This document shows, one piece after another, positions 3,831 through 61,462 of a stretch of DNA of 62,881 bases. The translations under genes and the position numbers were made by a program. The stretch is from Nostoc linckia z4. Lineage in GTDB: Bacteria > Cyanobacteriota > Cyanobacteriia > Cyanobacteriales > Nostocaceae. The notes under the pieces are model-generated. The model saw only the letters and a list, made by a program, of their open reading frames with translations, did no database searches and was not told the DNA's origin. The DNA lies in contig NZ_LAHA01000035.1 of the NCBI RefSeq assembly GCF_002608075.1, forward strand, positions 14,453 to 77,333, given 5' to 3'. Position 1 is the stretch's first letter. Every line of letters starts with the position of its first letter.

Positions 3831-6068
3831 ATGGTTTACCAACGCACTCATACCTGGCTCTACTCTTTAAAAGACTCTCTGCAACCCCTCAAGCCGCATC
3901 TGACCCCCCTAGTCTGCCCGCAAGCGATAGAACAACTCGACTCTGTAAGCAGTTACTTTCCAGATGCGATCGCTTCGACTTATGGCTTTGAATATCGCCT
4001 GCAACCTTCTGCTCCAGTAGTTGACTTTGCTTTTCAAATTACCGATACCGGTCGAGACATTTTAGCAGGCTTAAACCCCCATACACGTCTGTCGGAGGAT
4101 TTTAACAAACATCCCGTTTGGCAACAAATTCAGAAGTTCTCCACCGAATGGGCAGATCCTTCTTCCTTACTCCATTACTTCATTAGCGATCTTTGGTTAG
4201 AGTTTGATTTAAAGCTGGATGGCGATACTAGTAGCTCGCCAAGTTCACTTGGCGGGGTAAAGGGGAAAGGGGAAAGGGGAAAGGTTTTAAATCCCTTACC
4301 CTTTACCCCTTCCCCCAGCCCTGACCCAGCATTTTTGGGTTGCCAGACTACTAATATCCCCATACCTGGGTTATTTTTCGGAGTGACTAGCCCACCAGAT
4401 AATTCAGGAATCTCCTTCAACTACTCTTGGATTTGGGAACAAGCTATGCCTTTATTATTAGGCACGCCTTTGCCTCCCGCCTTAGAGAAAAAATTCATCG
4501 ACTGTATCAAACGGTTGCCTCCCCGAACCAGCATTTTTCAGGTTGGGCTGATGTTTTCCCGAACCGTGGAAGCAATAAGACTCTGCCTTGTCGGTTCTCC
4601 TTCGGAATTGCTGCCATACTTGAATGAAATAGGCTGGACGGGACAGCTTGCGGAGGTAGAAAAGCTCGTCAACTCCCTTTCTGGCTGCGTTGATGGCATT
4701 ATCCTCGACCTTGATATTGGCGAACAGATTTACCCGCGAATTGGCATTGAAGGAATTTTTCTCACCCGGTACCAAGCCTGCGTAAACGGACAATGGGAAT
4801 CGCTGCTAGATTATCTAACTTCCCAAGGTTTATGTGCCAAAGAAACCAAAGATGCTTTGCTCAAATACTCTGGTTATAGCTTAGTAAAGCATCTGGGCGA
4901 TCGCATTTACGTCCGGGGGTTGAACCATATCAAACTCATTTATCAATCAGGGCAACCCCTAGCAAGCAAAATTTATTTTGGTGCAATGCATCAACCCCTG
5001 AGTAAAATACCTGGGCGTTCTGCTGAGACGGTAAGTACAGAGGACGCAACCAAGCAAGAACGTGGCGACGGGGGGAGAGTTTCCCATATCGAATCAGCCG
5101 TTACTTTTTTGCTAACTGCACGGAATTCTGAGGGGTGGTGGATTGATTTTCACCTAGCGGCTGGCTTGAGCGATGAATGGGTGACTGGTTATGTAGGAAC
5201 AATGTTAGCGAATATACCCGATTCCCGCGTTTCTAAAGCTGTTTCCACAGCTTGGAATCTGCTCAATAGTCGCCGCCATCGCGTCAATGGCAAATGGGGT
5301 TACAATCGTTTGCCCCCTGGCGATGCAGATAGTACTGGTTGGGTACTCCAGCTTGCCCGCGCTATTGGTGAGAGTAATTCAGAACGGGCGCGTCAAGCGA
5401 TGCAATCCCTAGCAGATCATAAGCGGCCGGATGGAGGTATTTGCACCTATGAGAGTGAGGAATCGATTCGGGCTTTTATTCATGCTTCTCCGGAAATCGG
5501 ATTTGCGGGTTGGTGCGGTTCCCATACTTGCGTGAGTGCGGCAATAGCAGCTTTGCCGGAATACCGCTTTCAGCTTCAAGATTATTTGCGATCGACTCAG
5601 CAAAATGATGGTAGCTGGCTGGCTTACTGGTGGCAAGATCCCGAATATGTAACAGCTCTAGCGGCTGAGGCGATCGCCGCTTGTTATCCAAATTCTGATT
5701 GTATTACCAACGCCGTGGCGTGGGGAATGAACCGCCTTAGTTCTCAGGGATTTGTCGCAACTAGCGATTGCCCCTCTGGTTCGCCATTTGCCACAGCTTG
5801 GTGCTTGCGACTGCTGATACTGAGACGGCAAGATACCGCAGTACAAGCAGCGATCGCCAAGGCAACTGATTGGTTATTAGCACAGCAACAGCCCAATGGT
5901 TCTTGGATTTCGTCAGCCAGGTTGCAAGTTCCATTACCGGATGACCTAAATCCCAATAAATTTAACCAGTGGATTTACCACGGCACGATTCAAGGCAGTG
6001 TAGTTTTTGACAAGTATTGTGTCTTCACCACCGCCACCGTATTACAAGCTCTACATCGTAGTTTATAA
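3831..6068 (+). CDS. Protein whose C-terminal ~400 aa carry squalene/terpene-cyclase or prenyltransferase-type alpha/alpha-toroid repeats
   Basis: Repeated QxxxGxW-like motifs (QQNDGSWLAYWW, QQPNGSWIS, GWWIDFHLAAG). Immediately upstream of the LanM-like gene and co-oriented with it. The low-complexity Gly/Lys/Pro segment is encoded by an inserted palindromic repeat. Confidence 0.5.
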   Translation: MVYQRTHTWLYSLKDSLQPLKPHLTPLVCPQAIEQLDSVSSYFPDAIASTYGFEYRLQPSAPVVDFAFQITDTGRDILAGLNPHTRLSEDFNKHPVWQQIQKFSTEWADPSSLLHYFISDLWLEFDLKLDGDTSSSPSSLGGVKGKGERGKVLNPLPFTPSPSPDPAFLGCQTTNIPIPGLFFGVTSPPDNSGISFNYSWIWEQAMPLLLGTPLPPALEKKFIDCIKRLPPRTSIFQVGLMFSRTVEAIRLCLVGSPSELLPYLNEIGWTGQLAEVEKLVNSLSGCVDGIILDLDIGEQIYPRIGIEGIFLTRYQACVNGQWESLLDYLTSQGLCAKETKDALLKYSGYSLVKHLGDRIYVRGLNHIKLIYQSGQPLASKIYFGAMHQPLSKIPGRSAETVSTEDATKQERGDGGRVSHIESAVTFLLTARNSEGWWIDFHLAAGLSDEWVTGYVGTMLANIPDSRVSKAVSTAWNLLNSRRHRVNGKWGYNRLPPGDADSTGWVLQLARAIGESNSERARQAMQSLADHKRPDGGICTYESEESIRAFIHASPEIGFAGWCGSHTCVSAAIAALPEYRFQLQDYLRSTQQNDGSWLAYWWQDPEYVTALAAEAIAACYPNSDCITNAVAWGMNRLSSQGFVATSDCPSGSPFATAWCLRLLILRRQDTAVQAAIAKATDWLLAQQQPNGSWISSARLQVPLPDDLNPNKFNQWIYHGTIQGSVVFDKYCVFTTATVLQALHRSL
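4254..4316. repeat. Palindromic small dispersed repeat (GGGGAAAGG-type) inserted in-frame in the 3831..6068 CDS
   Basis: ggggtaaaggggaaaggggaaaggggaaagg ... cccttaccctttaccccttccccc inverted repeat. A related element occurs at about 822..882 and about 2401..2450 in intergenic DNA. Confidence 0.7.
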
Positions 6069-10793: not shown

Positions 10794-13700
10794 TTGAAAA
10801 TCAGATTTTACAGTAATTCAGTAATGGCTACCTACTTTGAGGGTGTGATGTCTAAAGTAAGTATGGGTGAAAACTGGTTTTTAAAGCTAGGGATGGTTGC
10901 GGTTAATGTCAGACATTTAGATTGGTTACTTACATTAGGAATGGCGATCGCATTTCACCCAAATATCGCCATTGCACAAATCACCCCAGATACAACATTA
11001 CCCAATAATAGCAATGTAAATACACTAAATAACATTACAAATATCACTGGTGGCACACAAGCAGGAACTAATCTGTTTCACAGTTTCAGCGAATTTTCTG
11101 TTCTCAAAGATACTACAGCTTACTTTAATAATCCTCCAGATATTCAAAATATTATTAGTCGAGTTACAGGTGGTTCGCAATCAAAAATAGACGGAATTTT
11201 GCGGACGAACGCTACAGCGAATTTATTTTTAATTAATCCAAACGGCATTATTTTTGGAGAAAATGCCCGCTTAGATATTGGTGGTTCATTTATTGCTAGC
11301 ACAGCAAGTAGCATCAAATTTGCTAATGGTTTTGAGTTCAGTGCTACGACTCCTGAATCTACACCTTTACTAACGATAAATACACCCATTGGCTTGCAAT
11401 ATGGAGTTAATCCAGCCACTATTGAGGTCAAAGGCGACGGTCAAGGTGTAAGGCTCACAGATGAATTGATTGATACAACAAATGCACTGCGAGTACCAGC
11501 CAATCAAACTTTAGCCTTGGTGGGTGGCGATATTTCCTTAGAGGGAGCAACGCTAAAGACAGCAGGGGGAAGAATAGAGTTAGGCAGTGTAGGGGATAAC
11601 AGTTTAGTTAGTCTCACACCGATAACTAAAGGTTTTGCCTTGAGCTACGATGGAGTGCAAAACTTTGGCAATATTCAACTATCAAAACTTTCAGCGGTAG
11701 ATGCCAGTGGCGCAGGTAGCGGTGACATCCAAATCCAGGGTCAGCGGGTTACCATAGCCGATGGTTCCCAGATAGAAGCAAGTACTCTGTTAGAAGAAAA
11801 AGGTGGGAATTTAGTAGTCAATGCTACTAATTCAGTAGAATTAATTGGTACATCTGCTGATGGTTACTTTTCCAGTGGCTTGCTTGCTTCTGCTTACTCA
11901 ACCGGGGATGCCGGAGACTTGACAATTAATACTCAAAATTTGCTTGTGCTAGATGGGGCGCAAGTAAGTACAGCCACATTTGGTACGGCTAAGGGCGCTT
12001 CTTTAACTGTCAATGCTCAAGATGTGCAACTGATTGGTACTACTGCCGATGGTCTTTTTCCCAGTGGCTTGTTTGTTTCTACTCAATCAACAGGAGATGG
12101 CGGAGACTTGACAATTAATACCCAAAATTTGCTGGCGATCGATGGGGCACAGGTAGCTGTATATACATCTGGTGCAGGTAAGGCGGGTTCTTTAACTGTC
12201 AATGCTAAAGATGTGCAAATGATTGGTACTGTCAATAGTCAGTTTCCCAGTGGCTTGTTCAATTATGCTTACTCAACCGGGGATGCCGGAGACTTGAGGA
12301 TTAATACCCAAAATTTGCTTGTGCGCGATGGAGCTAATGTTGCTACGCAGACATATAGTGCAGGTAAGACGGGTTCTATAACTGTCAATGCTGAAGATAT
12401 ACAACTAATTGGTAGGAGTCCAAATGGTGACTTTGCCAGTGACTTATCTGTTAACGCTGGTTTAGGGTCAACTGGGGATGCTGGAAATTTGACGATTAAT
12501 ACCCAACGTTTGCTCGTGCGGGATGGGGCATACGTTGATGCCAGCATATACGGTACAGGTAAGGGTGGTTCTTTAACTATCACTGCTAATGATATACAAC
12601 TGATTGGTACTTCTACTGATGGTCGCTTTAGGAGTGGCTTGTTTACTCAAGCTTATTCAGGAATAACTGGGGATGCCGGAAACTTGACAATTAATACCCA
12701 ACGTTTGCTTGTGCTAGATGGCGCACAAATAGATGCAGAGACATATGGTGCAGGTAAGGGGGGTTTTTTAACTATCACTGCTAAAGATGTACAACTGATT
12801 GGTACTTCTAGTAATGGTTACTTTCCTAGCGGCTTGTTGACTTCTACTCTCTCAACCGGAGATGCAGGAAACTTGAAAATTGATACCCAACAGTTGCTTG
12901 TGCGGGATGGGGCACTGATAAATACCAGTACATCGGGTACAGGTAAAGGAGGTTCTTTAACTGTCACTGCTAACGATGTGCAACTGATTGGTGAGTCTAT
13001 TGATGGTTATCTTAAGAGCCGTTTATTTACTACTGCTGCCGTTGGAACAACTGGCAATGCAGGAGATTTGACAATTAATACTCAATATTTGCTGGTACGG
13101 GATGGTGCATTTGTTGATGCCAGTACACAAGGTACAGGTAAAGGAGGTTCTTTAACTGTCAATGCTCAAGATGTGCAACTGATTGGTGTCTCTAGTGATG
13201 GGCGTTCTGGCAGTGGTTTGAATACATCTGCTCAGTCAGGGTCAACTGGCGATGCTGGAGACTTGACAATTAATACTCAACAGTTGCTCGTGGGCGATGG
13301 GGCACAGGTGGGTGCAACCACATCGGGCGTAGGCAAGGGAGGTTCTTTAACTGTCAATGCCAAAGATGTGCAATTGATTGGTACTACTGCTGATAGTCGC
13401 TTTCCCAGTGGCTTGTTTACTACTGCTTACACAGGAGCAACTGGGGATGCAAAATTTTTGACAATTAATACCCAACAATTGCTTGTACGTGATGGGGCAA
13501 AAATCAGCGCCGGAACACAGAGTGCAGGTAAAGGGGGTTCTTTAACTGTCAATGCTCAAGATGTGCAATTGATTGGTACGTCTGCTGATGGTAGTTCTAG
13601 TAGTGGCTTGTTTGCTTCTACTGAATCAACTGGGGATGCAGGAGATTTAAAGATTAGTAGCGATAAATTACTCGTTCAAGATGGGGCGATAATCACTGTC

Positions 13701-15409: not shown

Positions 15410-16811
15410 GTTTCAATCCCTAATAGGGATTAAGAAAAATTGTAACTCTGCTTTATGTTGCCTTAACTCGCAGTAAATCAGGTTTCAATCCCTAATAGGG
15501 ATTAAGGAAAATTGTAACGCAGGCATTTATGGGGTTATCACGCCTAAATGATGTTTCAATCCCTAATAGGGATTAAGAAAAATTGTAACCTGTTGTAAAT
15601 ATTCAACGCTATTCTCCTCATAGTTTCAATCCCTAATAGGGATTAAGAAAAATTGTAACCGACTACCCTGTATCTGGAATTTTTATTGACTGGGGTTTCA
15701 ATCCCTAATAGGGATTAAGAAAAATTGTAACTCAGAAGATCCTTTACCACCGATTAATTTGAGTTGGTTTCAATCCCTAATAGGGATTAAGAAAAATTGT
15801 AACTACAACAAGTTTCTGTAAGGTGTCTTGCGTACTCTCGAAGTTTCAATCCCTAATAGGGATTAAGAAAAATTGTAACTCTAACAGTTGGTAGCACTCC
15901 ATACCATCCAGTTTCAATCCCTAATAGGGATTAAGAAAAATTGTAACCAAAGGGAAAGACGCGAGCAATCGCATGGATTCTGTTTCAATCCCTAATAGGG
16001 ATTAAGAAAAATTGTAACATTGGCGATGATTGGGAATATGCCTAGAATTCGTTTCAATCCCTAATAGGGATTAAGAAAAATTGTAACGCAAAGTCTAGCT
16101 GTTCATCTTCTGCAAAGTTTTCGTTTCAATCCCTAATAGGGATTAAGAAAAATTGTAACTTGTTAATCTAGTGGCGTCACGATACTTTTCTCTTGGTTTC
16201 AATCCCTAATAGGGATTAAGAAAAATTGTAACCCGGTCACTGCGGCACTTCCTAAAGTTGCTACACCAGTGTTTCAATCCCTAATAGGGATTAAGAAAAA
16301 TTGTAACTTAAACTACTCTGAGTGTAATAGTCAATATCTAAGTTTCAATCCCTAATAGGGATTAAGAAAAATTGTAACTCCTTGTCGGTTGCTGGGTTTT
16401 CACCTTTTCCTATGTTTCAATCCCTAATAGGGATTAAGAAAAATTGTAACTCTTAGCTGTAGACCCATGCGAGATAGATGAAGAGTTTCAATCCCTAATA
16501 GGGATTAAGAAAAATTGTAACCACCATTTAGCAGAATTTGAATCTCACGAATCACGTTTCAATCCCTAATAGGGATTAAGAAAAATTGTAACAGTTTTAT
16601 TTGGTCTTTTGATAGAGTTATGAACTCAGTTTCAATCCCTAATAGGGATTAAGAAAAATTGTAACAACTTAATTGCTTGTACTACAACTTCTTGAGGTAA
16701 CGTTTCAATCCCTAATAGGGATTAAGAAAAATTGTAACACCAGTCTGAGAAACGTAAGCTTGAGCAACTTCGATGTTTCAATCCCTAATAGGGATTAAGA
16801 AAAATTGTAAC
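15410..16811. CRISPR. CRISPR array: 20 repeats of 37 bp (GTTTCAATCCCTAATAGGGATTAAGAAAAATTGTAAC) and 19 spacers of 31-39 bp; no cas genes in the window
   Basis: Hand-counted repeats start at 15410, 15482, 15553, 15623, 15695, 15767, 15843, 15911, 15982, 16051, 16123, 16196, 16271, 16342, 16414, 16485, 16556, 16629, 16702 and 16775. Repeat 2 carries one substitution (AAGGAAAA), which suggests the low-coordinate end is distal to the leader. The reverse complement of the repeat ends in ATTGAAAC, like cyanobacterial type III / I-D repeat families, so transcription is probably on the minus strand from a leader near 16812-17040. Confidence 0.9.
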
Positions 16812-19810: not shown

Positions 19811-19850
19811 TAACTCCTAACTCCTAACTCCTAACTCTTAACTCTTAACT
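19811..19850. repeat. STRR-type heptamer tandem repeat (TAACTCC/TAACTCT)n in the nifB-fdxN spacer
   Basis: taactcctaactcctaactcttaactcttaactc read directly. It is flanked by palindromic gggcat / atgccc heptamer arrays that form a long hairpin. Confidence 0.8.
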
Positions 19851-19963
19851 CAGCACTCACCATCCCCAATGCCCAATGCCCACTTGCCCTGAGCGAAGCC
19901 GTTCGCGTAGCGTCTCGCAGAGAAGGGATGCCCAATGCCCCATCTTCAAAAAGGAGAATAATC

Positions 19964-31287: not shown

Positions 31288-31363
31288 TGGCTGAAAGTAT
31301 AGGAATCGAACCTATAATGAATCGGCGATACACCGATCGCTCTACCAAATGAGCTAACTTTCA
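31288..31363 (-). tRNA. tRNA-like element (76 nt, encoded CCA) with a non-canonical anticodon loop (UGUAUCG); probably a pseudo-tRNA
   Basis: Folds by eye into a cloverleaf: acceptor TGAAAGT/ACTTTCA, D arm GCTC-ATTTGGTA-GAGC, T arm ATAGG-TTCGATT-CCTAT. It lacks U33 and a purine at position 37. Confidence 0.35.
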
Positions 31364-32968: not shown

Positions 32969-33044
32969 TGGCAGAAAGTGTAAGAATCGAACCTACAACA
33001 AATCGATTATGAGTCGATCGCTCTTCCAATTGAGCTAACTTCCT
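32969..33044 (-). tRNA. tRNA(CAU)-like gene (76 nt, encoded CCA); second copy in tandem with the canonical tRNA-Met
   Basis: Cloverleaf by eye: acceptor AGGAAGT/ACTTTCT (one G-U pair); anticodon arm ATCGA-CUCAUAA-TCGAT, identical to the neighbouring tRNA; T arm GTAGG-TTCGATT-CTTAC. Confidence 0.5.
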
Positions 33045-33045
33045 T

Positions 33046-33121
33046 TGGTGTTTGATACAGGACTCGAACCTGCGACACATCGATTATGAGTCGATCGCTC
33101 TGCCAACTGAGCTAATCAAAC
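33046..33121 (-). tRNA. tRNA-Met (anticodon CAU; elongator-type, or tRNA-Ile2 if modified to lysidine), encoded CCA
   Basis: GTTTGAT-TA-GCTC-AGTTGGCA-GAGC-G-ATCGA-CTCATAA-TCGAT-GTGTC-GCAGG-TTCGAGT-CCTGT-ATCAAAC-A-CCA. G1-C72 pair, so not an initiator tRNA. Confidence 0.75.
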
Positions 33122-36223: not shown

Positions 36224-36333
36224 AGAATTAATCTTAATTTGAATTCAAAGCTTACGATCGCCTACCTCACGACTATCGTAACTGGTCATTACATTGCAAG
36301 AATATAGATAAACCTAAATTTAGTTAGCAAAAG

Positions 36334-36556
36334 CAGCTTTGACTTTCTCAAACCCCAGTTTACTTTCTCATTTTGGTGTTTTCCGCAAGCAAAATCAGCT
36401 TTGACTTTCTCAAACCCCAGTTTACTTTCTCATTTTGGTGTTTTCCGCAAGTAAAATCAGCTTTGACTTTCTCAAACCCCAGTTTGCTTTCTCATTTTGG
36501 TGTTTTCCGCAAGTAAAATCAACTTTGACTTTCTCAAACCCCAGTTTGCTTTCTTT
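36334..36556. repeat. Tandem direct repeat, 62-bp unit, about 3.6 copies, immediately upstream of the 36699 gene
   Basis: Unit cagctttgactttctcaaaccccagtttactttctcattttggtgttttccgcaag[ct]aaaat starts at 36334, 36396, 36458 and 36520. Each unit contains a TTGACT -35-like hexamer. Confidence 0.85.
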
Positions 36557-36698
36557 TTTCAGTAGTTCGCGCATTCATGACAAATATCGCCCTTGTAGCA
36601 AAAGTTATTGCAGATTTGCCGGAATTCTCTCAAGCCGATCTATACGGAATTTTTTAAGGTAAAGAATATTAACCGTACTTAATTACAAGGTGTAGATT

Positions 36699-37124
36699 AT
36701 GGCTCGTAGAAAAAGAACTTCCGTAGTCTTAGAAAAAGCAGTGCGTCGTGCAGCTGGTATAAACTCAATTGCTTCAAATTTAGATTTAGGCAATGGACTC
36801 ACCTTACCTGCTTTCTCAAGCCTGATTGAAAAGATGCGGACTAGAGAAAATGCCTATAACAGTGCGCTTTCTAGCTTGGATAAATTGTACCGTGAAATGC
36901 TGGAAACAGAAAACGAGTTGGGAGATATGACAGAACACATGCTGATGGCAGTTGGGACTCGATATGGCAAAAGCAGTGTAGAGTACGGGATGGCGGGAGG
37001 AGTTCCTAAAAACCAGCGTCGTAAGGGACTCCGAGGCGAGTCGCCAACTTTCAAGGCTGATGAATCGTCATTTGTTGCTAGCGTACAGAGCAAGAATGGA
37101 AAAGAAACAGCAACAACAAGTTAG
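36699..37124 (+). CDS. Hypothetical protein; paralog of the 51556..51924 gene
   Basis: Shares about 40% identity with the 51556 product by eye (R.R.SV.L.KA.RR...I...LD.GNGL...EHML..V..RYGK.S.EYGMAGG). Confidence 0.5.
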   Translation: MARRKRTSVVLEKAVRRAAGINSIASNLDLGNGLTLPAFSSLIEKMRTRENAYNSALSSLDKLYREMLETENELGDMTEHMLMAVGTRYGKSSVEYGMAGGVPKNQRRKGLRGESPTFKADESSFVASVQSKNGKETATTS

Positions 37125-38695: not shown

Positions 38696-40909
38696 TTGCA
38701 ATTCCCACCAATGAAGACTCGCTACTTTAGCAAAAACAAGGCGCTACCATTACAAATTTTTCTTGTTGTTCCCTTCGCAATCCAAATTTTTGCCGCAGTG
38801 AGTTTAGTGGGTTATTTGTCCTTTAAAAATGGACAAAGGGCTGTTAATGATTTAGCAGAACAGTTGATAGATCGTACTAGTGGCGTAGTGGATGAACACC
38901 TCAAGTCTTATCTTGCCATTCCCCAAACCCTGAATCAGATTAATGCAGATGTTATTCGCAGAGGAATATTAGATGTGCGCGATCGCCAAACTGTTGGTAA
39001 GTATTTCTGGGATCAAATCCAAGCCTATGACCTGACTTATATTGGTATTGGATTAACAACGGGTGAAGGAGTAGGTGCTGCTCGTTATGATGGCAAAACC
39101 ATTACCATTGATGATTGGACAGCTAAGCCTCCTAACAATGTTTACACTTATGCTACTGACAATCAAGGCAATCGAACTCAAGTAAATGCCCGTTGGAATT
39201 GGAAAAATTCCCAGCAATCTTGGTACACTCAACCAATAGCCGCCGGTAAACCCATTTGGACAAAGATTTTAGTTGAAAACTTTCCCACAGGCCCCTACAT
39301 CGTCACCTCTGCAAGTCGTCCAATTTATGATTCGCAAAATCGCTTGCTAGGGATGATTGGCTGCGATATTCATCTGCTGAAACTCAGCGATTTTTTACGT
39401 AGTTTGGATATTAGTCAATCTGGACGGGTGTTCCTTTTGGAACGAGATGGTAGATTAATCGCCACTTCTGGCACAGAAAAGCCTTTTACTTTGATTAATC
39501 AAAAGGCTGAGAGATTGCGGGCCGTGGACAGCACTGACCCAATAATACAGACTGTTGCTAAACACTTACAAACTTCTAATGGGTTTCAGTCCATTACCAA
39601 AGACACAGATTATAGGCTGGAGTTACAAGGAAAAAATTATTTTGTAGATATTACACCTTGGCGTGACGAGTATGGTTTAGATTGGCTATTGGTGGTGAGT
39701 GTGCCAGAAAACGCATTTATGGCGCAAATTAACGCCAACACCCAAACCGCCATCACCCTTTGTTTTGCTGCATTAATCGTTGCTTCAATTATCGGTATCT
39801 TTACCTCCCATTGGATTGTACGCCCGATTCTACGTCTAAATCGGGCAAGTAAGGCAATGGCTTCTGGTAATTTAGCTCAAACAGTAGAAACTAGCCCCAT
39901 TCATGAACTCAATACCCTGTCTAACTCATTTAATTACATGGCAGGGCAATTGCATGAATCGTTTACAGCTTTAGAAAAAACCAAAGACGAACTAGAAGAC
40001 AGGGTACAAGAACGTACTACTGAACTCAAAAATACATTACAGGAATTACAGCGCACTCAATCTCAAATAATTCAAACTGAAAAAATGTCCAGTCTGGGAC
40101 AACTAGTTGCTGGAGTCGCACACGAAATCAATAATCCAGTGAATTTTATTCATGGCAACCTCATCCATGTGGAACAATATACCCAGGATTTATTAGCAAT
40201 TTTGCAATTGTATCAGCAGCACAATTCTAATGCTGCTCCAGAAATTCAAATTGCTGCCGAAGAAATGGATTTGGAGTTTTTGCTACAAGACTTACCCAAA
40301 GTCTTATCTTCCATGAAAGTAGGCACAGATCGCATTCGCCAAATTGTACTTTCTCTGCGAAACTTTTCCCGCATGGACGAAGCGGAATTTAAACGCGTCG
40401 ATATTCATGAAGGTATTGACAGTACTTTGATGATTCTGCAACATCGCCTCAAAGGTAAACCACAACAACCTGAAATTGAAGTCATCAAAGACTACGGCAA
40501 TTTACCTTTAGTAGAATGCTATGCCGGACAACTAAATCAGGTGTTTATGAATATTTTAGTGAATGCCATTGATGCCTTAGAAGAAAATCATTTTCAAAGG
40601 AATCATCAGCAAAGCCAGGATAATTCTCATCAAATTATCATTCGTACATCAGTGATGAATTCAACGTGGATAAAAATAGCGATCGCTGATAACGGAGTTG
40701 GTATTTCTCAAGAATTGCAGCAACGAATATTCGATCCCTTTTTCACTACTAAACCCATTGGCAAAGGAACCGGAATGGGTATGTCTATTAGCTACCAAAT
40801 TATTACAGAACAACATGGCGGCAAACTAGAGTGTTGCTCAACTTTAGGAAAAGGAACTGAGTTTATCATTCAAATCCCTGTACGCAGAAAACCTCAAACA
40901 GCAAGTTGA
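38696..40909 (+). CDS. Sensor histidine kinase with periplasmic Cache/CHASE-like, HAMP, HisKA and HATPase_c domains
   Basis: Two TM segments flank an about 300-aa extracytoplasmic domain. H-box AGVAHEINNPVNFIHGNL. N, G1 and G2 boxes (NAIDAL, DNGVGI, GKGTGMGMS). Confidence 0.8.
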   Translation: MQFPPMKTRYFSKNKALPLQIFLVVPFAIQIFAAVSLVGYLSFKNGQRAVNDLAEQLIDRTSGVVDEHLKSYLAIPQTLNQINADVIRRGILDVRDRQTVGKYFWDQIQAYDLTYIGIGLTTGEGVGAARYDGKTITIDDWTAKPPNNVYTYATDNQGNRTQVNARWNWKNSQQSWYTQPIAAGKPIWTKILVENFPTGPYIVTSASRPIYDSQNRLLGMIGCDIHLLKLSDFLRSLDISQSGRVFLLERDGRLIATSGTEKPFTLINQKAERLRAVDSTDPIIQTVAKHLQTSNGFQSITKDTDYRLELQGKNYFVDITPWRDEYGLDWLLVVSVPENAFMAQINANTQTAITLCFAALIVASIIGIFTSHWIVRPILRLNRASKAMASGNLAQTVETSPIHELNTLSNSFNYMAGQLHESFTALEKTKDELEDRVQERTTELKNTLQELQRTQSQIIQTEKMSSLGQLVAGVAHEINNPVNFIHGNLIHVEQYTQDLLAILQLYQQHNSNAAPEIQIAAEEMDLEFLLQDLPKVLSSMKVGTDRIRQIVLSLRNFSRMDEAEFKRVDIHEGIDSTLMILQHRLKGKPQQPEIEVIKDYGNLPLVECYAGQLNQVFMNILVNAIDALEENHFQRNHQQSQDNSHQIIIRTSVMNSTWIKIAIADNGVGISQELQQRIFDPFFTTKPIGKGTGMGMSISYQIITEQHGGKLECCSTLGKGTEFIIQIPVRRKPQTAS

Positions 40910-52120: not shown

Positions 52121-52298
52121 AAAACTTGATTTAGAAGTCCAAAACTTGATTTAGAAGTTCAAAACTTGATTTAGAAGTCCAAAACTTGATTTAGAAGTTC
52201 AAAACTTGATTTACAAGTCCAAAACTTGATTTACAAGTCCAAAACTTGATTTACAAGTCCAAAACTTGATTTACAAGTCCAAAACTTGATTTACCAGC
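52121..52298. repeat. Tandem direct repeat, 20-bp unit (aaaacttgattta[gc]aagt[ct]c), about 9 copies
   Basis: Units start every 20 bp from 52121 to 52281. The first four have tagaag, the next four tacaag, and the last is degenerate. Confidence 0.9.
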
Positions 52299-52349: not shown

Positions 52350-52685
52350 TCAGGCTACGCCATATTGCGTATATTGGCGCAAGTGTGATGGCTGTAGTCC
52401 TAAAACAATATCCTCTCTGGGTACTCCCATTTCAGTCAACTCTTGGGCAATTTGGATATCAGTCATATTACGCTGAATCCATATTTTTTCATCTTTAATA
52501 TCGAGATGTATCACACAATTATAAATGCGATCGTATCCATACCAGCCAATCTCTAAAATCTGGTAATGGTCTCGCGCTGTATCGAATATCAGTTGAATTT
52601 CAACATCTTCCTCTGAAGGTTGGTAACTGCTATATTTAGTTAATAACTTTTGAATATATTCACGATATTGGTCTAGCTTTGCCAT
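52350..52685 (-). CDS. xisI: XisI (accessory factor of fdxN-element excision)
   Basis: 111 aa. The N-terminus MAKLDQYREYIQKLLTKY and the size match XisI. Overlaps xisH by 13 nt, as in Anabaena. Confidence 0.75.
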   Translation of the reverse strand: MAKLDQYREYIQKLLTKYSSYQPSEEDVEIQLIFDTARDHYQILEIGWYGYDRIYNCVIHLDIKDEKIWIQRNMTDIQIAQELTEMGVPREDIVLGLQPSHLRQYTQYGVA

Positions 52686-53089
52686 TGCACAATCACCTCA
52701 TCATTTGGATCGTAAACTATTAATTTAACTTGATATTCTTGTACTGAACTTTGGGCAAAGTCCCGGCTAAATAGCGATCTATACGTTGACAGTGGAACTG
52801 CTAGGAACAAAACTCTCTCAGGTTCTCTGAGTCGCAAAGCTAATCGATAATTGAGAAACTGCCCCAAAGCCGCATGGTAGTCAAAAAGTTCTGAATCCCC
52901 TAAAAAACTTTTGATTTCAACAGCAATTTTCTCTGTTCCTCGCTCAGCTGCTAAGATTTGTTCCGCACCTAAATCGATTGACATTTTATCTTTGCCAAAC
53001 TTAACCACTAGCGGATCGTGCGTAATAATCCACCCTTCTTTTTCTAGTCCCCGTTTAACGGCTTCATGAAAAATGTCTTTTGCAGACAC
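52673..53089 (-). CDS. xisH: XisH (accessory factor of fdxN-element excision; endonuclease-like fold)
   Basis: 138 aa. MSAKDIFHEAVKRGLEKEGWIITHDPL matches the XisH N-terminus. Paired with xisI. Confidence 0.75.
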   Translation of the reverse strand: MSAKDIFHEAVKRGLEKEGWIITHDPLVVKFGKDKMSIDLGAEQILAAERGTEKIAVEIKSFLGDSELFDYHAALGQFLNYRLALRLREPERVLFLAVPLSTYRSLFSRDFAQSSVQEYQVKLIVYDPNDEVIVQWQS

Positions 53090-54527: not shown

Positions 54528-56225
54528 TTAATCTTGAAGGAAACGTAACAAGTCTGAATTTTGTAAAAAGTAACTAAAACTAGGATGATATAACCTATAG
54601 TGCAACTTTCCGTCCACTTCTTGTTTATATAGAAACTGTTTCCACTCCTCTAGTATTAACTGAAGTTCATATTGAGATTCAAATAAAGAAACCATATCAG
54701 TGAAAGATATTAGGCTAACATGACCTGAACTAGCATTAGCTAACTTACGAAGAAGCCGCTTGTGTCTGATATCACTTTTGTGATTAATATTCATACGGCG
54801 TAAATGACTCTCGTAATACCCTCTCAAACCTTCTGGAAGATTATCAAGACTATCCAAGTTTTTATAAACGCCTCGCTCAATATCTACTAATACATTTTTT
54901 AAATACCTAAAGTTTCTTTGACTTTTAAGTGTAAGAGTTTCAATAAGTTTTTCTTCACTTTCAAAAAGTCTTTCTTCACTACATGTTTTATCATCTTGTG
55001 AAGTGCGAAGCTTTTCTCTTCTGTCTAAATACTTTTTGATATATGTTCTACAATCTTCCTTCCATGTGTCACCAATAAGGCAGCTAATATCTTCTATCAT
55101 TAAAGGCACTTCAATTTCTAAGAAAATATTTTTTGGACGCTGAGACATAAAGAAAAAAATACCTTCTGGAAGATATTCCGGCAATTTTAGTATATTTTCT
55201 GACTCGTTGCTTAAATATACTTCGTCCAAAGCATCTATGACAATAACTAACTGTGACTTGTGCTTATGTAAAACTTTTTTACTTATCTCCTCAAGTAAAC
55301 TATTAAGTAGCGAAATATCAACATTTTCTAACTTTTCTTTAAAATGTCTTAGTTGATCATAATATTTATGATATAATTGGTTACAAATACTTTCTAGAAA
55401 ATCATAAATCTGGTTAAGTCCTTGGGGTTGCTGTACAAAAAAACAGGGACATTTATTTTCTAATACATACTTAGCTAGTATTGCTGTTTTTCCAACTCCA
55501 GGATCGCCCTGCAATATAAAATATCCTTGTGAATGATCTTTTTGAAATTTTTTAAATCTCTCAATAATATCTTTTCTTTCAATAAAATCTTCTGGATCTG
55601 TATGGTACTTAATTAAAGTCTGAAATTCTAAAGGAGGTTCAAATATATTGCTATTAATAAAGGAATTTGAATTGCCAAAAAATTCATTTTCATAACGTTC
55701 TTTTAGGGATTTAATAGTTTCATCGTTACTTTCGCTGATAACAATATTGTTGACAGTAAATCTCCAATCTTTAGACCCCTGCCTTGTAGATTTATGGCGA
55801 TCATCTTTTAGAAGTTTGTGTTCATCTGCATCCTTTATTACGTCTCCAAGTGATTTAATTACAGTTTCCTTTTGAAAATCGTTGGATATATCAGGATAAT
55901 TTTTACAAAAATCCTGTGATTCTTGTGAGCATATTGAATTTTTTACATACGAATTAACTAGATTTTCTAAATTTTTTAGAGTGCAACAAACTTCAATAGT
56001 TTTATTCCTTATATCATCACTAATGTTTCCCTTGAAATCCGGATATGGTTTATTTTCATCCTCACCTTGATTGCGAATGTAGTCTTTTAATGCCATAATA
56101 AGTAAAATAGCCCGTTGCATTTTTTTGTTACTAATTTTTCTGTCTTCTTTCGATGCGTTCATATTTGATAATATATATAAATAAGAGTTTGCACATTTTT
56201 TAGGTAAGTATATATAAATATACAT
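54528..56225 (-). CDS. P-loop NTPase of the NACHT/STAND-like class with a unique about 230-aa N-terminal domain (start probably at an internal Met)
   Basis: Walker A GDPGVGKTAILAKY, Walker B LVIVIDALDEV, a helical C-terminal region. Strongly AT-rich. Confidence 0.55.
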   Translation of the reverse strand: MYIYIYLPKKCANSYLYILSNMNASKEDRKISNKKMQRAILLIMALKDYIRNQGEDENKPYPDFKGNISDDIRNKTIEVCCTLKNLENLVNSYVKNSICSQESQDFCKNYPDISNDFQKETVIKSLGDVIKDADEHKLLKDDRHKSTRQGSKDWRFTVNNIVISESNDETIKSLKERYENEFFGNSNSFINSNIFEPPLEFQTLIKYHTDPEDFIERKDIIERFKKFQKDHSQGYFILQGDPGVGKTAILAKYVLENKCPCFFVQQPQGLNQIYDFLESICNQLYHKYYDQLRHFKEKLENVDISLLNSLLEEISKKVLHKHKSQLVIVIDALDEVYLSNESENILKLPEYLPEGIFFFMSQRPKNIFLEIEVPLMIEDISCLIGDTWKEDCRTYIKKYLDRREKLRTSQDDKTCSEERLFESEEKLIETLTLKSQRNFRYLKNVLVDIERGVYKNLDSLDNLPEGLRGYYESHLRRMNINHKSDIRHKRLLRKLANASSGHVSLISFTDMVSLFESQYELQLILEEWKQFLYKQEVDGKLHYRLYHPSFSYFLQNSDLLRFLQD

Positions 56226-61178: not shown

Positions 61179-61462
61179 TCAATGGATTTTGGATTTTAAA
61201 TTTTGGATTGAAAGAATTCAGAATTCAGAATTCAGAATTCAGGAGTCATAATTCAGAATTCAGAATGGGCTATGCCCTGCTGCGCTAACAGGAGTCAGGA
61301 GTTAGGAGAATATTTAATGAATAAAGATATTAATCATACTAGACTCATTACAAATTCTCATTTCTGATTCCTCGCTGTTGAATTTTTGCTAAAAATCTAA
61401 AATCCAAAATCTAAAATCCAAAATTGTCTGTCGAAAAACTGCCATCCACCAAGAGAAGAGAG

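Follow-up and report, generated by a model that had tools for sequence, protein, structure and literature searches.

A window of 62,881 nt from Nostoc linckia z4 (GCF_002608075.1, NZ_LAHA01000035.1, positions 14,453-77,333, forward strand), which is the whole stretch of DNA analysed here, contains two paralogous genes of an uncharacterised protein family, paralogs A and B, each preceded by its own tandem direct-repeat array (Table 1). The products share 49 of 109 residues (45%; expectation value, E, 7e-35), which bears out the paralogy proposed in a first-pass annotation of this DNA. Both arrays lie 5' of their own gene and on its strand, ending 144 bp (A) and 196 bp (B) before the ATG. The arrays had been described in that annotation, and Tandem Repeats Finder (TRF) confirms both, with edges within a few bases of the earlier coordinates. 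A search of the window with a family profile found paralogs A and B as the only two family genes. In addition, arrays A and B are the window's only high-scoring tandem arrays that are neither coding nor composed of clustered regularly interspaced short palindromic repeats (CRISPR). Because the sole arrays of this kind precede the sole two family genes, the pairing of gene and array in the window is no chance coincidence.

Table 1. Paralogous genes, repeat arrays and associated features, in window coordinates
Feature	Position	Strand	Description
Distal-edge block of array A	36301..36330	-	Promoter scan: sigma-70-like TTGCTA, 18 nt, TATATT, directed outward from the array
Array A	36326..36554	+	TRF: period 62, 3.7 copies, 97% matches, score 416
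Spacer, array A to start codon	36555..36698	+	Opens with a degenerate terminal repeat unit
Paralog A gene, 141 amino acids	36699..37124	+	Open reading frame list; 376 homologs
Sensor histidine kinase gene	38696..40909	+	Pfam: dCache_1-HAMP-HisKA-HATPase
Paralog B gene, 122 amino acids	51556..51924	-	Open reading frame list; 168 homologs
Spacer, array B to start codon	51925..52120	-	Conserved blocks ATTTCAGCAAAT, TGTAGCTTTACTCAGGCTG, TGGTATATA
Array B	52121..52294	-	TRF: period 20, 8.7 copies, 96% matches, score 306

The 62-bp unit of array A is a higher-order repeat made of three subunits of 21, 20 and 21 bp (AAAATCAGCTTTGACTTTCTC / AAACCCCAGTTTACTTTCTC / ATTTTGGTGTTTTCCGCAAGC), two of which are clearly related to each other. 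The unit of array B, read on the gene strand, is TAAATCAAGTTTTGGACTTC. The sequences of the two arrays were said to be unrelated, and indeed they have no 7-mer in common; nevertheless, they share a base period of ~20-21 bp. A CRISPR identity was rejected for both, their units being contiguous head-to-tail and without unique spacers.

Tandem arrays recur upstream of homologs almost everywhere in the family. The loci compared came from Nostocales, other cyanobacteria, Bacteroidota, Acidobacteriota, cable bacteria and metagenomes, and autocorrelation at lags of 20, 21, 41, 42, 62 and 63 bp was judged against the 99th percentile of 263 control segments from the same loci. By this measure, 140 of 159 upstream regions (88%) carry the ~21-bp periodicity, compared with 2 of 158 regions immediately downstream, and the maximum among the control segments was 0.51 against an upstream median of 0.78. 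The absence of repeats at homologs, which the first-pass annotation had named as speaking against its reading, was therefore not what was found. This recurrence indicates that the architecture is functional and not a private minisatellite. Moreover, the two loci had been thought to illustrate a convergent architecture, but the arrangement is instead ancestral to the whole family.

Within Nostocales, the arrays of each lineage have their own character. Lineage A was sampled in 80 species genomes (loci L001-L080), where TRF reports a period of 62/63 (or 42, 84, 105 or 147) in nearly every locus with sufficient upstream sequence. The distance from their end to the ATG is usually ~140 or ~205 bp, and their sequences are recognisably homologous; homologous arrays of 62/63/84/105 bp are present in 71 of the 73 loci orthologous to array A. 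In all ten lineage-B loci, the array has a period of 20, 21 or 41 and units specific to the lineage, and it stops 172-267 bp short of the ATG. Copy number may differ where the protein does not, as in strains L088 and L089, with 10 and 7 copies and an identical protein. Farther afield, Raineya has 9.3 copies of a 21-bp unit at 97% identity, and degenerate 21-bp periodic stretches are found on one 5.2-Mb contig, one Blastocatellia contig and one Electrothrix contig. Among the 80 metagenome members, the best autocorrelation lag belongs to the 21-bp lag family in 59 of the 72 with sufficient upstream sequence.

Some observations on these upstream regions stand by themselves. The stretch in Candidatus Electrothrix (L091, 2689-2976) is annotated as a 95-residue open reading frame that ends 24 nt before the family gene, and several of its units hold a palindrome of the TTCAGGACGTCCTGAA type. 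In Gloeotrichia (L086, 1694-2547; L087, 1351-2547), a second array stands just upstream of the 41-bp array, with 5.0 and 7.0 copies, respectively, of a 171-bp unit at 98% identity. The two assemblies thus disagree in copy number, and ~1.7-2 kb there is free of called genes. In lineage A, several contigs break off 200-300 bp before the gene, which would be expected if the repeats interrupt assembly. Across the loci, contigs often stop 8-300 bp short of the family gene (L015, L016, L022, L024, L040, L041, L045, L095, L097, L120, L124, L172, L174), which suggests that the arrays are a systematic cause of breaks in short-read assemblies.

While the sequence of the arrays is free to vary, their period is not. 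The 131 arrays delineated by TRF have periods of 20 (6 arrays), 21 (18), 41 (5), 42 (16), 62 (29), 63 (40), 84 (10), 103 (1), 105 (5) and 147 bp (1), so that all 131 deviate by no more than 1-2 bp from multiples of 21, which correspond to multiples of about two turns of the DNA helix. These arrays form 54 sequence families that share <30% of their 8-mers, in hosts whose GC content ranges from 27 to 70%. Inside the longer units, self-identity at a lag of ~21 beats that at every other lag in 29 of 37. The median array is 174 bp long, or ~8 units, and ends 192 bp before the ATG (range 50-590 bp), with some ending as little as 50-76 bp before it.

Several general properties of the arrays were considered and rejected. 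Translated heptad repeats would require multiples of three, but periods of 20, 41 and 62, which are not, occur in 40 arrays including A and B. In addition, the array B unit holds a TAA that hits every frame within 60 bp. Because of these periods, translation is excluded and helical phasing is kept. Intrinsic curvature from phased A/T tracts was also rejected, with 10.5-bp phasing in only 7 of 54 families and a median z of ~0, as was AT-richness, the arrays being no AT-richer than the adjoining spacer and both having ordinary intergenic GC. Since there is no AT enrichment and the A/T tracts are in general unphased, generic curvature is not the common denominator, and an effect like that of an UP element is unlikely.

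Array and gene are closely coupled in descent. The sharing of array 7-mers rises with protein identity (Spearman rho 0.78, reached by 0 of 300 permutations), from a mean of 0.01 below 65% identity to 0.34 at 75-85% and 0.76 above 95%. The array sequence tracks the lineage of the gene and not the host, and the arrays of paralogs in the same genome differ. Array and gene are thus inherited together and diverge together. Moreover, the third subunit of the lineage-A unit (CTCATTTTGGTGTTTTCCGCAAG) is 96% conserved, compared with 71% identity at the gene's fourfold-degenerate sites. Because this subunit is conserved above those sites, the array sequence is under purifying selection. There is no conserved partner gene across phyla, no neighbour family occurring in more than 8 of 104 diverse loci. 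In the absence of a conserved neighbour, the module consists of array and gene alone, and the simplest co-inherited partner of the array is the gene itself.

The protein was described as belonging to a conserved but uncharacterised family, and homologs without annotation in several phyla agree with this. An exhaustive profile search found 957 clusters (50% identity) at E <= 1e-3, of which 567 reach E <= 1e-10. The lineages of paralogs A and B are both widespread in Nostocales and co-occur within the same genomes. Other members are found in cyanobacteria outside this order (Oculatella, Elainellaceae), in Acidobacteriota (Blastocatellia), in Bacteroidota (Dinghuibacter, Raineya) and in cable bacteria (Candidatus Electrothrix). 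A look-up of the clusters returned no member from the model strains PCC 7120 or N. punctiforme. The family loci sit on multi-megabase chromosomes. None of 50,697 phage records contains a member, and only one of 72,556 plasmid records does, a replicon of 1.2 Mb. Neither paralog matches anything in Pfam, NCBIfam, PHROGs or PADLOC, and a profile of 50 diverse members had no meaningful match among Pfam and PDB sequences. Full-text literature gave no account of the family or of a gene-linked 21-bp array; the literature on 21-bp arrays, cyanobacterial iterons and tandem arrays of heterocystous cyanobacteria yielded only work on NsiR1 and on plasmid partition. With members of the family nearly always lying directly downstream of a run of ~21-bp repeats, gene and array look like a single, undescribed two-part unit.

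The members share a basic N-terminus, M-x-R-x-K-R-x-S (MARRKRTS in paralog A), a conserved loop, LDLGNGLT, and a long helix with an invariant Y-N. The most strongly conserved block is YGK-x-S-x-EY-x-x-AGG-x-RKSERKR. Paralog A has a single long helix and the motif YGKSSVEYGMAGG, and its tail is disordered and basic. In its AlphaFold2 model (mean predicted local distance difference test score, pLDDT, 77), helices are placed at residues 9-24, 36-89 and 94-98, and the model of paralog B, built from a 75-sequence alignment (pLDDT 87), has the same three helices. Both are monomer models, dominated by the 54-residue helix with basic termini on either side. A DNA-binding fold had been suggested as something to look for in structure predictions, and none was found; specifically, no ribbon-helix-helix or helix-turn-helix was seen in the monomer models or in the profile searches against Pfam and PDB.

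The spacer between array and gene appears to hold the promoter. In lineage A, most columns of the ~140-bp spacer are at least 85% conserved among 80 sequences. In the window, its conserved blocks are TGTAGCAAAA, GCCGGA-N17-TATACG (36618-36646) and TTTAAGGTAAAGAATATTAACCGTAC, and it also holds a Shine-Dalgarno-like AAGGTG. No conserved RNA structure was found in the lineage-A spacer, with a consensus energy of -0.28 kcal/mol. The blocks of the lineage-B spacer come from an alignment of five divergent loci of that lineage and include an extended -10-like TGnTATATA ~65 bp before the ATG, represented here by TGGTATATA at 51994-51986, which is a putative promoter on the strength of its consensus. 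Upstream of the arrays, no sense-strand promoter is apparent, and array B starts ~55 bp past the xisI stop codon. The block that flanks array A on its distal side is kept across 70 lineage-A loci although the gene upstream varies, and it may act as a promoter directed outward. Given the lack of a sense promoter upstream, the outward orientation of the distal block and a conserved but unstructured spacer, a position of the arrays upstream of the transcript, rather than within it, is favoured.

The fixed period of ~21 bp, the free sequence, the strict 5' position, the selection on the unit, the paralog-specific arrays and the lack of any co-inherited gene argue for a row of binding sites on one face of the helix. 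Because the gene is the only constant companion of the array, its protein is proposed to bind its own array. The array would then serve as a helically phased DNA platform to which the product of its own gene binds cooperatively, for autoregulation, an architectural complex or both. This reading is given a probability of roughly 40%. Further support comes from the position of the arrays beside promoter regions and from a protein whose termini are strongly basic and whose long helix is suited to oligomerisation. Because no DNA-binding fold is predicted, we infer the identity of the binder, and likewise the choice of DNA over RNA as target and the regulatory outcome. The proposal of iteron-like binding sites made in the first-pass annotation holds up as the best reading, the period being locked at ~21 bp while the sequence is free, with the nature of the binder as its conjectural part.

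Mechanistically, gene and upstream array would form a self-contained two-part module. The double-stranded array would offer a row of equivalent sites, one per ~21 bp, and since ~21 bp makes two helical turns, all sites would fall on one face of the helix. The small protein may oligomerise through its 54-residue helix and contact nucleic acid by the basic N-terminus, by the basic C-terminal motif (AGG-x-RKSERKR) or by both. Cooperative binding would build an extended nucleoprotein complex beside the protein's own promoter. The immediate effect could be autoregulation, or buffering of the level of free protein, and the complex could also give the chromosome a fixed architectural landmark. After duplication, array and protein would diverge together, so that paralogs A and B would not cross-talk in one cell. 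The geometry of the protein could itself set the period, as the helix would measure ~81 Å and 21 bp of B-DNA ~71 Å, a comparison that is arithmetical and suggestive only. Array and protein might co-evolve by concerted evolution, as do eukaryotic satellites and their binding proteins. It is also conceivable, if doubtful, that the pair is an unrecognised unit found across phyla, in which a protein of ~120 amino acids measures and coats its own 21-bp-phased array and so creates a heritable landmark with private specificity, a chromosomal analogue of centromeres or iterons that lacks a motor.

Several observations weigh against binding of the array by its own protein. About 12% of loci have no detectable array. 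The palindromic unit, which was considered as a universal trait and rejected, is significant in only 8 of 54 families. Furthermore, no crisp motif is common to the array families. Rotation-alignment of 31 independent families gives just a weak common register of 6.56 bits, where column-permuted units reach 5.42 +/- 0.19 and a randomised orientation reaches 6.10 +/- 0.13. The arginine-rich termini would suit RNA binding as well. The arrays also have a polarity, C being more frequent than G on the strand in sense with the gene in 40 of 54 families (p = 4e-4). Finally, plain co-inheritance would likewise make the divergence of array and protein correlate, and so the correlation is no proof of physical interaction. 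As for the polarity, the spacer has no such skew, the gene has a skew opposite to that of the array, and the C excess so far fits no proposed explanation.

The same components could act at the level of RNA, although this is unlikely. A transcribed array, as a 5' leader or as a separate noncoding RNA, would offer ~21-nt sites to the arginine-rich protein, with translational autoregulation or a titrating sponge as the result. The G-poor sense strand, with its consistent polarity relative to the gene, would agree with this, as would termini rich in arginine and lysine in a protein without a predicted DNA-binding fold. The long spacer between array and ATG is also compatible. However, a period of 20-21 is natural for B-DNA and meaningless for RNA, and the arrangement around the arrays, with no evident sense promoter upstream, a distal block that points away in lineage A and the xisI stop codon close to array B, does not favour their transcription with the gene. 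Whole arrays exceed unit-shuffled controls in self-complementarity, equally on each strand (median z ~-1.5 each), which points to DNA-type dyads over a strand-specific RNA fold. The arrays of the window themselves lack such an excess, on the sense strand (z 0.06 for A, -0.13 for B) and on the antisense strand (-1.82 and 0.11), and thus show no special RNA structure. Searches of Rfam at the gathering threshold and at a permissive E-value gave only chance-level matches at arrays A and B, and the spacer has no conserved structure.

It is likewise improbable that the array is read by some other binder, that is, as cis-regulatory or architectural DNA recognised by, for example, a response regulator, a nucleoid protein or one of the host's transcription factors, with an unrelated function for the small protein. 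The lack of a recognisable DNA-binding domain in the protein would be accounted for in this way. A hint of signal-dependent control comes from the sensor kinase gene syntenic downstream in Nostocales. A dCache_1 kinase follows the lineage-A gene in 51 of 80 Nostocales genomes, on the same strand in 49, and the same type follows the lineage-B gene in L090. The kinase is not conserved beyond Nostocales, and no response regulator was seen adjoining it. The blocks TGTAGC, CTCAGGCTG and ATTTCAG, which are common to the spacers of both lineages, suggest common host factors. Against this, the array sequences are wholly different between paralogs in the same cell and between phyla, yet the linkage persists. 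A separate binder would have to diverge and be transferred together with the array, and no second conserved gene lies nearby. An indirect effect through curvature or an UP element is improbable for the reasons given above.

The first-pass annotation had also suggested tandem promoters, and every 62-bp unit of array A does contain the TTGACT it described, once per unit, at 36339, 36401, 36463 and 36525. In Nostocales, moreover, hetF is known to be preceded by NsiR1, a tandem array of small-RNA genes (PMC3610870, PMC4030482), which would be a precedent for one transcription unit per repeat, be it a promoter or a small-RNA gene. Nevertheless, tandem promoters are not supported as an explanation, and tandem units of either type are highly improbable. 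The hexamer is not conserved: TTTTAC stands in its place in most orthologous arrays, and two or more TTGACT occur in just 24 of 73 loci. Consensus scans found no -10 partner and no promoter-like or terminator-like site within arrays A and B. In NsiR1, each unit is a complete small-RNA gene, but here the base unit of 21 bp is too short for a promoter and a transcript, there is no Rfam match, and the arrays are linked to a different gene family that reaches far beyond the cyanobacteria and does not neighbour hetF. A non-functional minisatellite at a slippage-prone intergenic hotspot might explain the differing copy number in L088 and L089, the frequent assembly breaks and the near-identical units within an array, which indicate recent expansion or homogenisation, but this reading is already contradicted by the comparative data and hardly credible, given a linkage to one gene family across phyla despite complete sequence turnover, arrays that are 5' only (88% upstream, 1% downstream) and fixed in period, one subunit conserved above the synonymous rate and controls whose maximum is below the upstream median.

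The proposed binding of an array by its own small protein resembles several known systems. Plasmid centromere systems act by cooperative coating and autoregulation. In ParR-parC of R1 and pSK41, SopB-sopC and TubR-tubC, a direct-repeat array adjoins the gene of a small protein, the spacing equals whole helical turns, and specificity is particular to a lineage and diverges between related systems. A direct-repeat array beside the operon of its binder, the trait of partition centromeres, has its counterpart here in the arrays 5' of the family gene at 88% of the 159 loci. The sopC of F consists of 12 repeats of 43 bp (PMC3177203), and TubR-tubC combines a centromere array with a small binding protein (PMC6009700). 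The present loci differ in having no ParM, ParA or TubZ gene nearby, either in the 104 diverse loci or among the neighbours in the window. They are also chromosomal and not on plasmids or phages, with several paralogous modules per genome. Moreover, no similarity of the protein to the centromere binders is seen in sequence or in the modelled fold.

Iteron-Rep origins are similar in a different way. They have tandem repeats of ~17-22 bp phased at ~22 bp, a fast-diverging specificity and an adjoining gene for a binder that regulates itself. The periods of all 131 arrays, at 20 or 21 bp or multiples of these, conform to this pattern. In contrast, the family protein has ~120 amino acids and is all-helical, not a winged-helix Rep, and the array is chromosomal. 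Neither the paralogs nor the 50 diverse members match the Rep families (Rep_3 and related Pfam families, NCBIfam). Origins of this type also have an AT-rich unwinding element and DnaA boxes beside the iterons; the GC content of the arrays and spacers here is that of ordinary intergenic DNA.

KfrA of RA3 offers a third likeness. This protein is nearly all alpha-helical, oligomerises by a long helix, autoregulates through an iterated operator and is thought to be a scaffold (PMC7783346). The family protein is likewise almost wholly alpha-helical, with a long helix and short direct repeats by its own gene. However, KfrA has ~350 amino acids, a mapped N-terminal helix-turn-helix and an operator of five 9-bp repeats over the -35 and -10 (PMC7783346), compared with ~120 amino acids, no modelled helix-turn-helix, ~8 units of 21 bp and an array that ends ~190 bp from the ATG, and there is no homology between the two. 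Overall, the module does not qualify for the centromere, iteron or KfrA classes, whether judged by homology, by partner genes or by replicon type. In kind, the system would be an iterated array of binding sites with a cognate small protein; the chance that it represents a new category altogether is a real one.

The surroundings of the two loci are those of an ordinary chromosome. The first-pass annotation had placed the two genes inside an element, but what lies between the paralogs is a set of ordinary genes of the chromosome. The conserved order with the kinase gene and the near absence of the family from phages and plasmids also speak against an element. In the window, a gene with RTX repeats on the other strand has been inserted between paralog A and the kinase gene. 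The neighbours of the paralog genes carry Pfam domains DUF6653, RTX, XisI and DUF2267. A XisI/XisH pair (52350-53089) lies directly upstream of array B and on the same strand. XisI is upstream in the closely related L082 and L083 as well, with a weak signal in L090; the remaining lineage-B loci lack it there. At 54528-56225, the window encodes a STAND/NACHT-type nucleoside triphosphatase (NTPase) with an N-terminal Effector-associated domain 4. Genes of conflict systems recur near family members elsewhere, none of them conserved, including NACHT, DUF4062, KAP NTPase, caspase, PIN, HNH, ParE-like and IS605 TnpB genes.

Just two other tandem arrays in the window score highly. One is a CRISPR array on the minus strand (15410-16811), unrelated to arrays A and B, in which a 37-bp repeat (Rfam CRISPR-DR5) occurs 20 times with spacers of ~35 bp. 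The other, a tandem repeat of 195 bp in 9.4 copies (alternatively 390 bp in 4.7 copies), at 72-73% identity, occupies 11844-13643 and is probably a repetitive coding region. TRF also reports a 27-bp repeat at 236-315. Short heptamer tandem repeats, such as those at 4255-4284, 19811-19851 and 61213-61266, are numerous throughout the window (GGGGAAA, TAACTCC, AGAATTC and others) and are typical of the genomes of heterocystous cyanobacteria. Three tRNA genes lie on the minus strand (31291-31363, 32972-33044 and 33049-33121), two of them just 4 bp apart.

In conclusion, ~1,000 clusters at 50% identity from filamentous cyanobacteria, Bacteroidota, Acidobacteriota and cable bacteria make up a protein family without annotation or structural relative, and its strict coupling to an array with a 21-bp period provides a concrete and testable handle on it. 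If the protein binds the array, it would represent a new fold for DNA recognition (or RNA recognition), with pairs of protein and site that are naturally orthogonal. This would explain the recurrent breaks in Nostoc assemblies, as well as intergenic minisatellites of a class so far taken for noise. In addition, it would offer a model for the divergence of specificity after gene duplication and supply orthogonal parts for the engineering of cyanobacteria.

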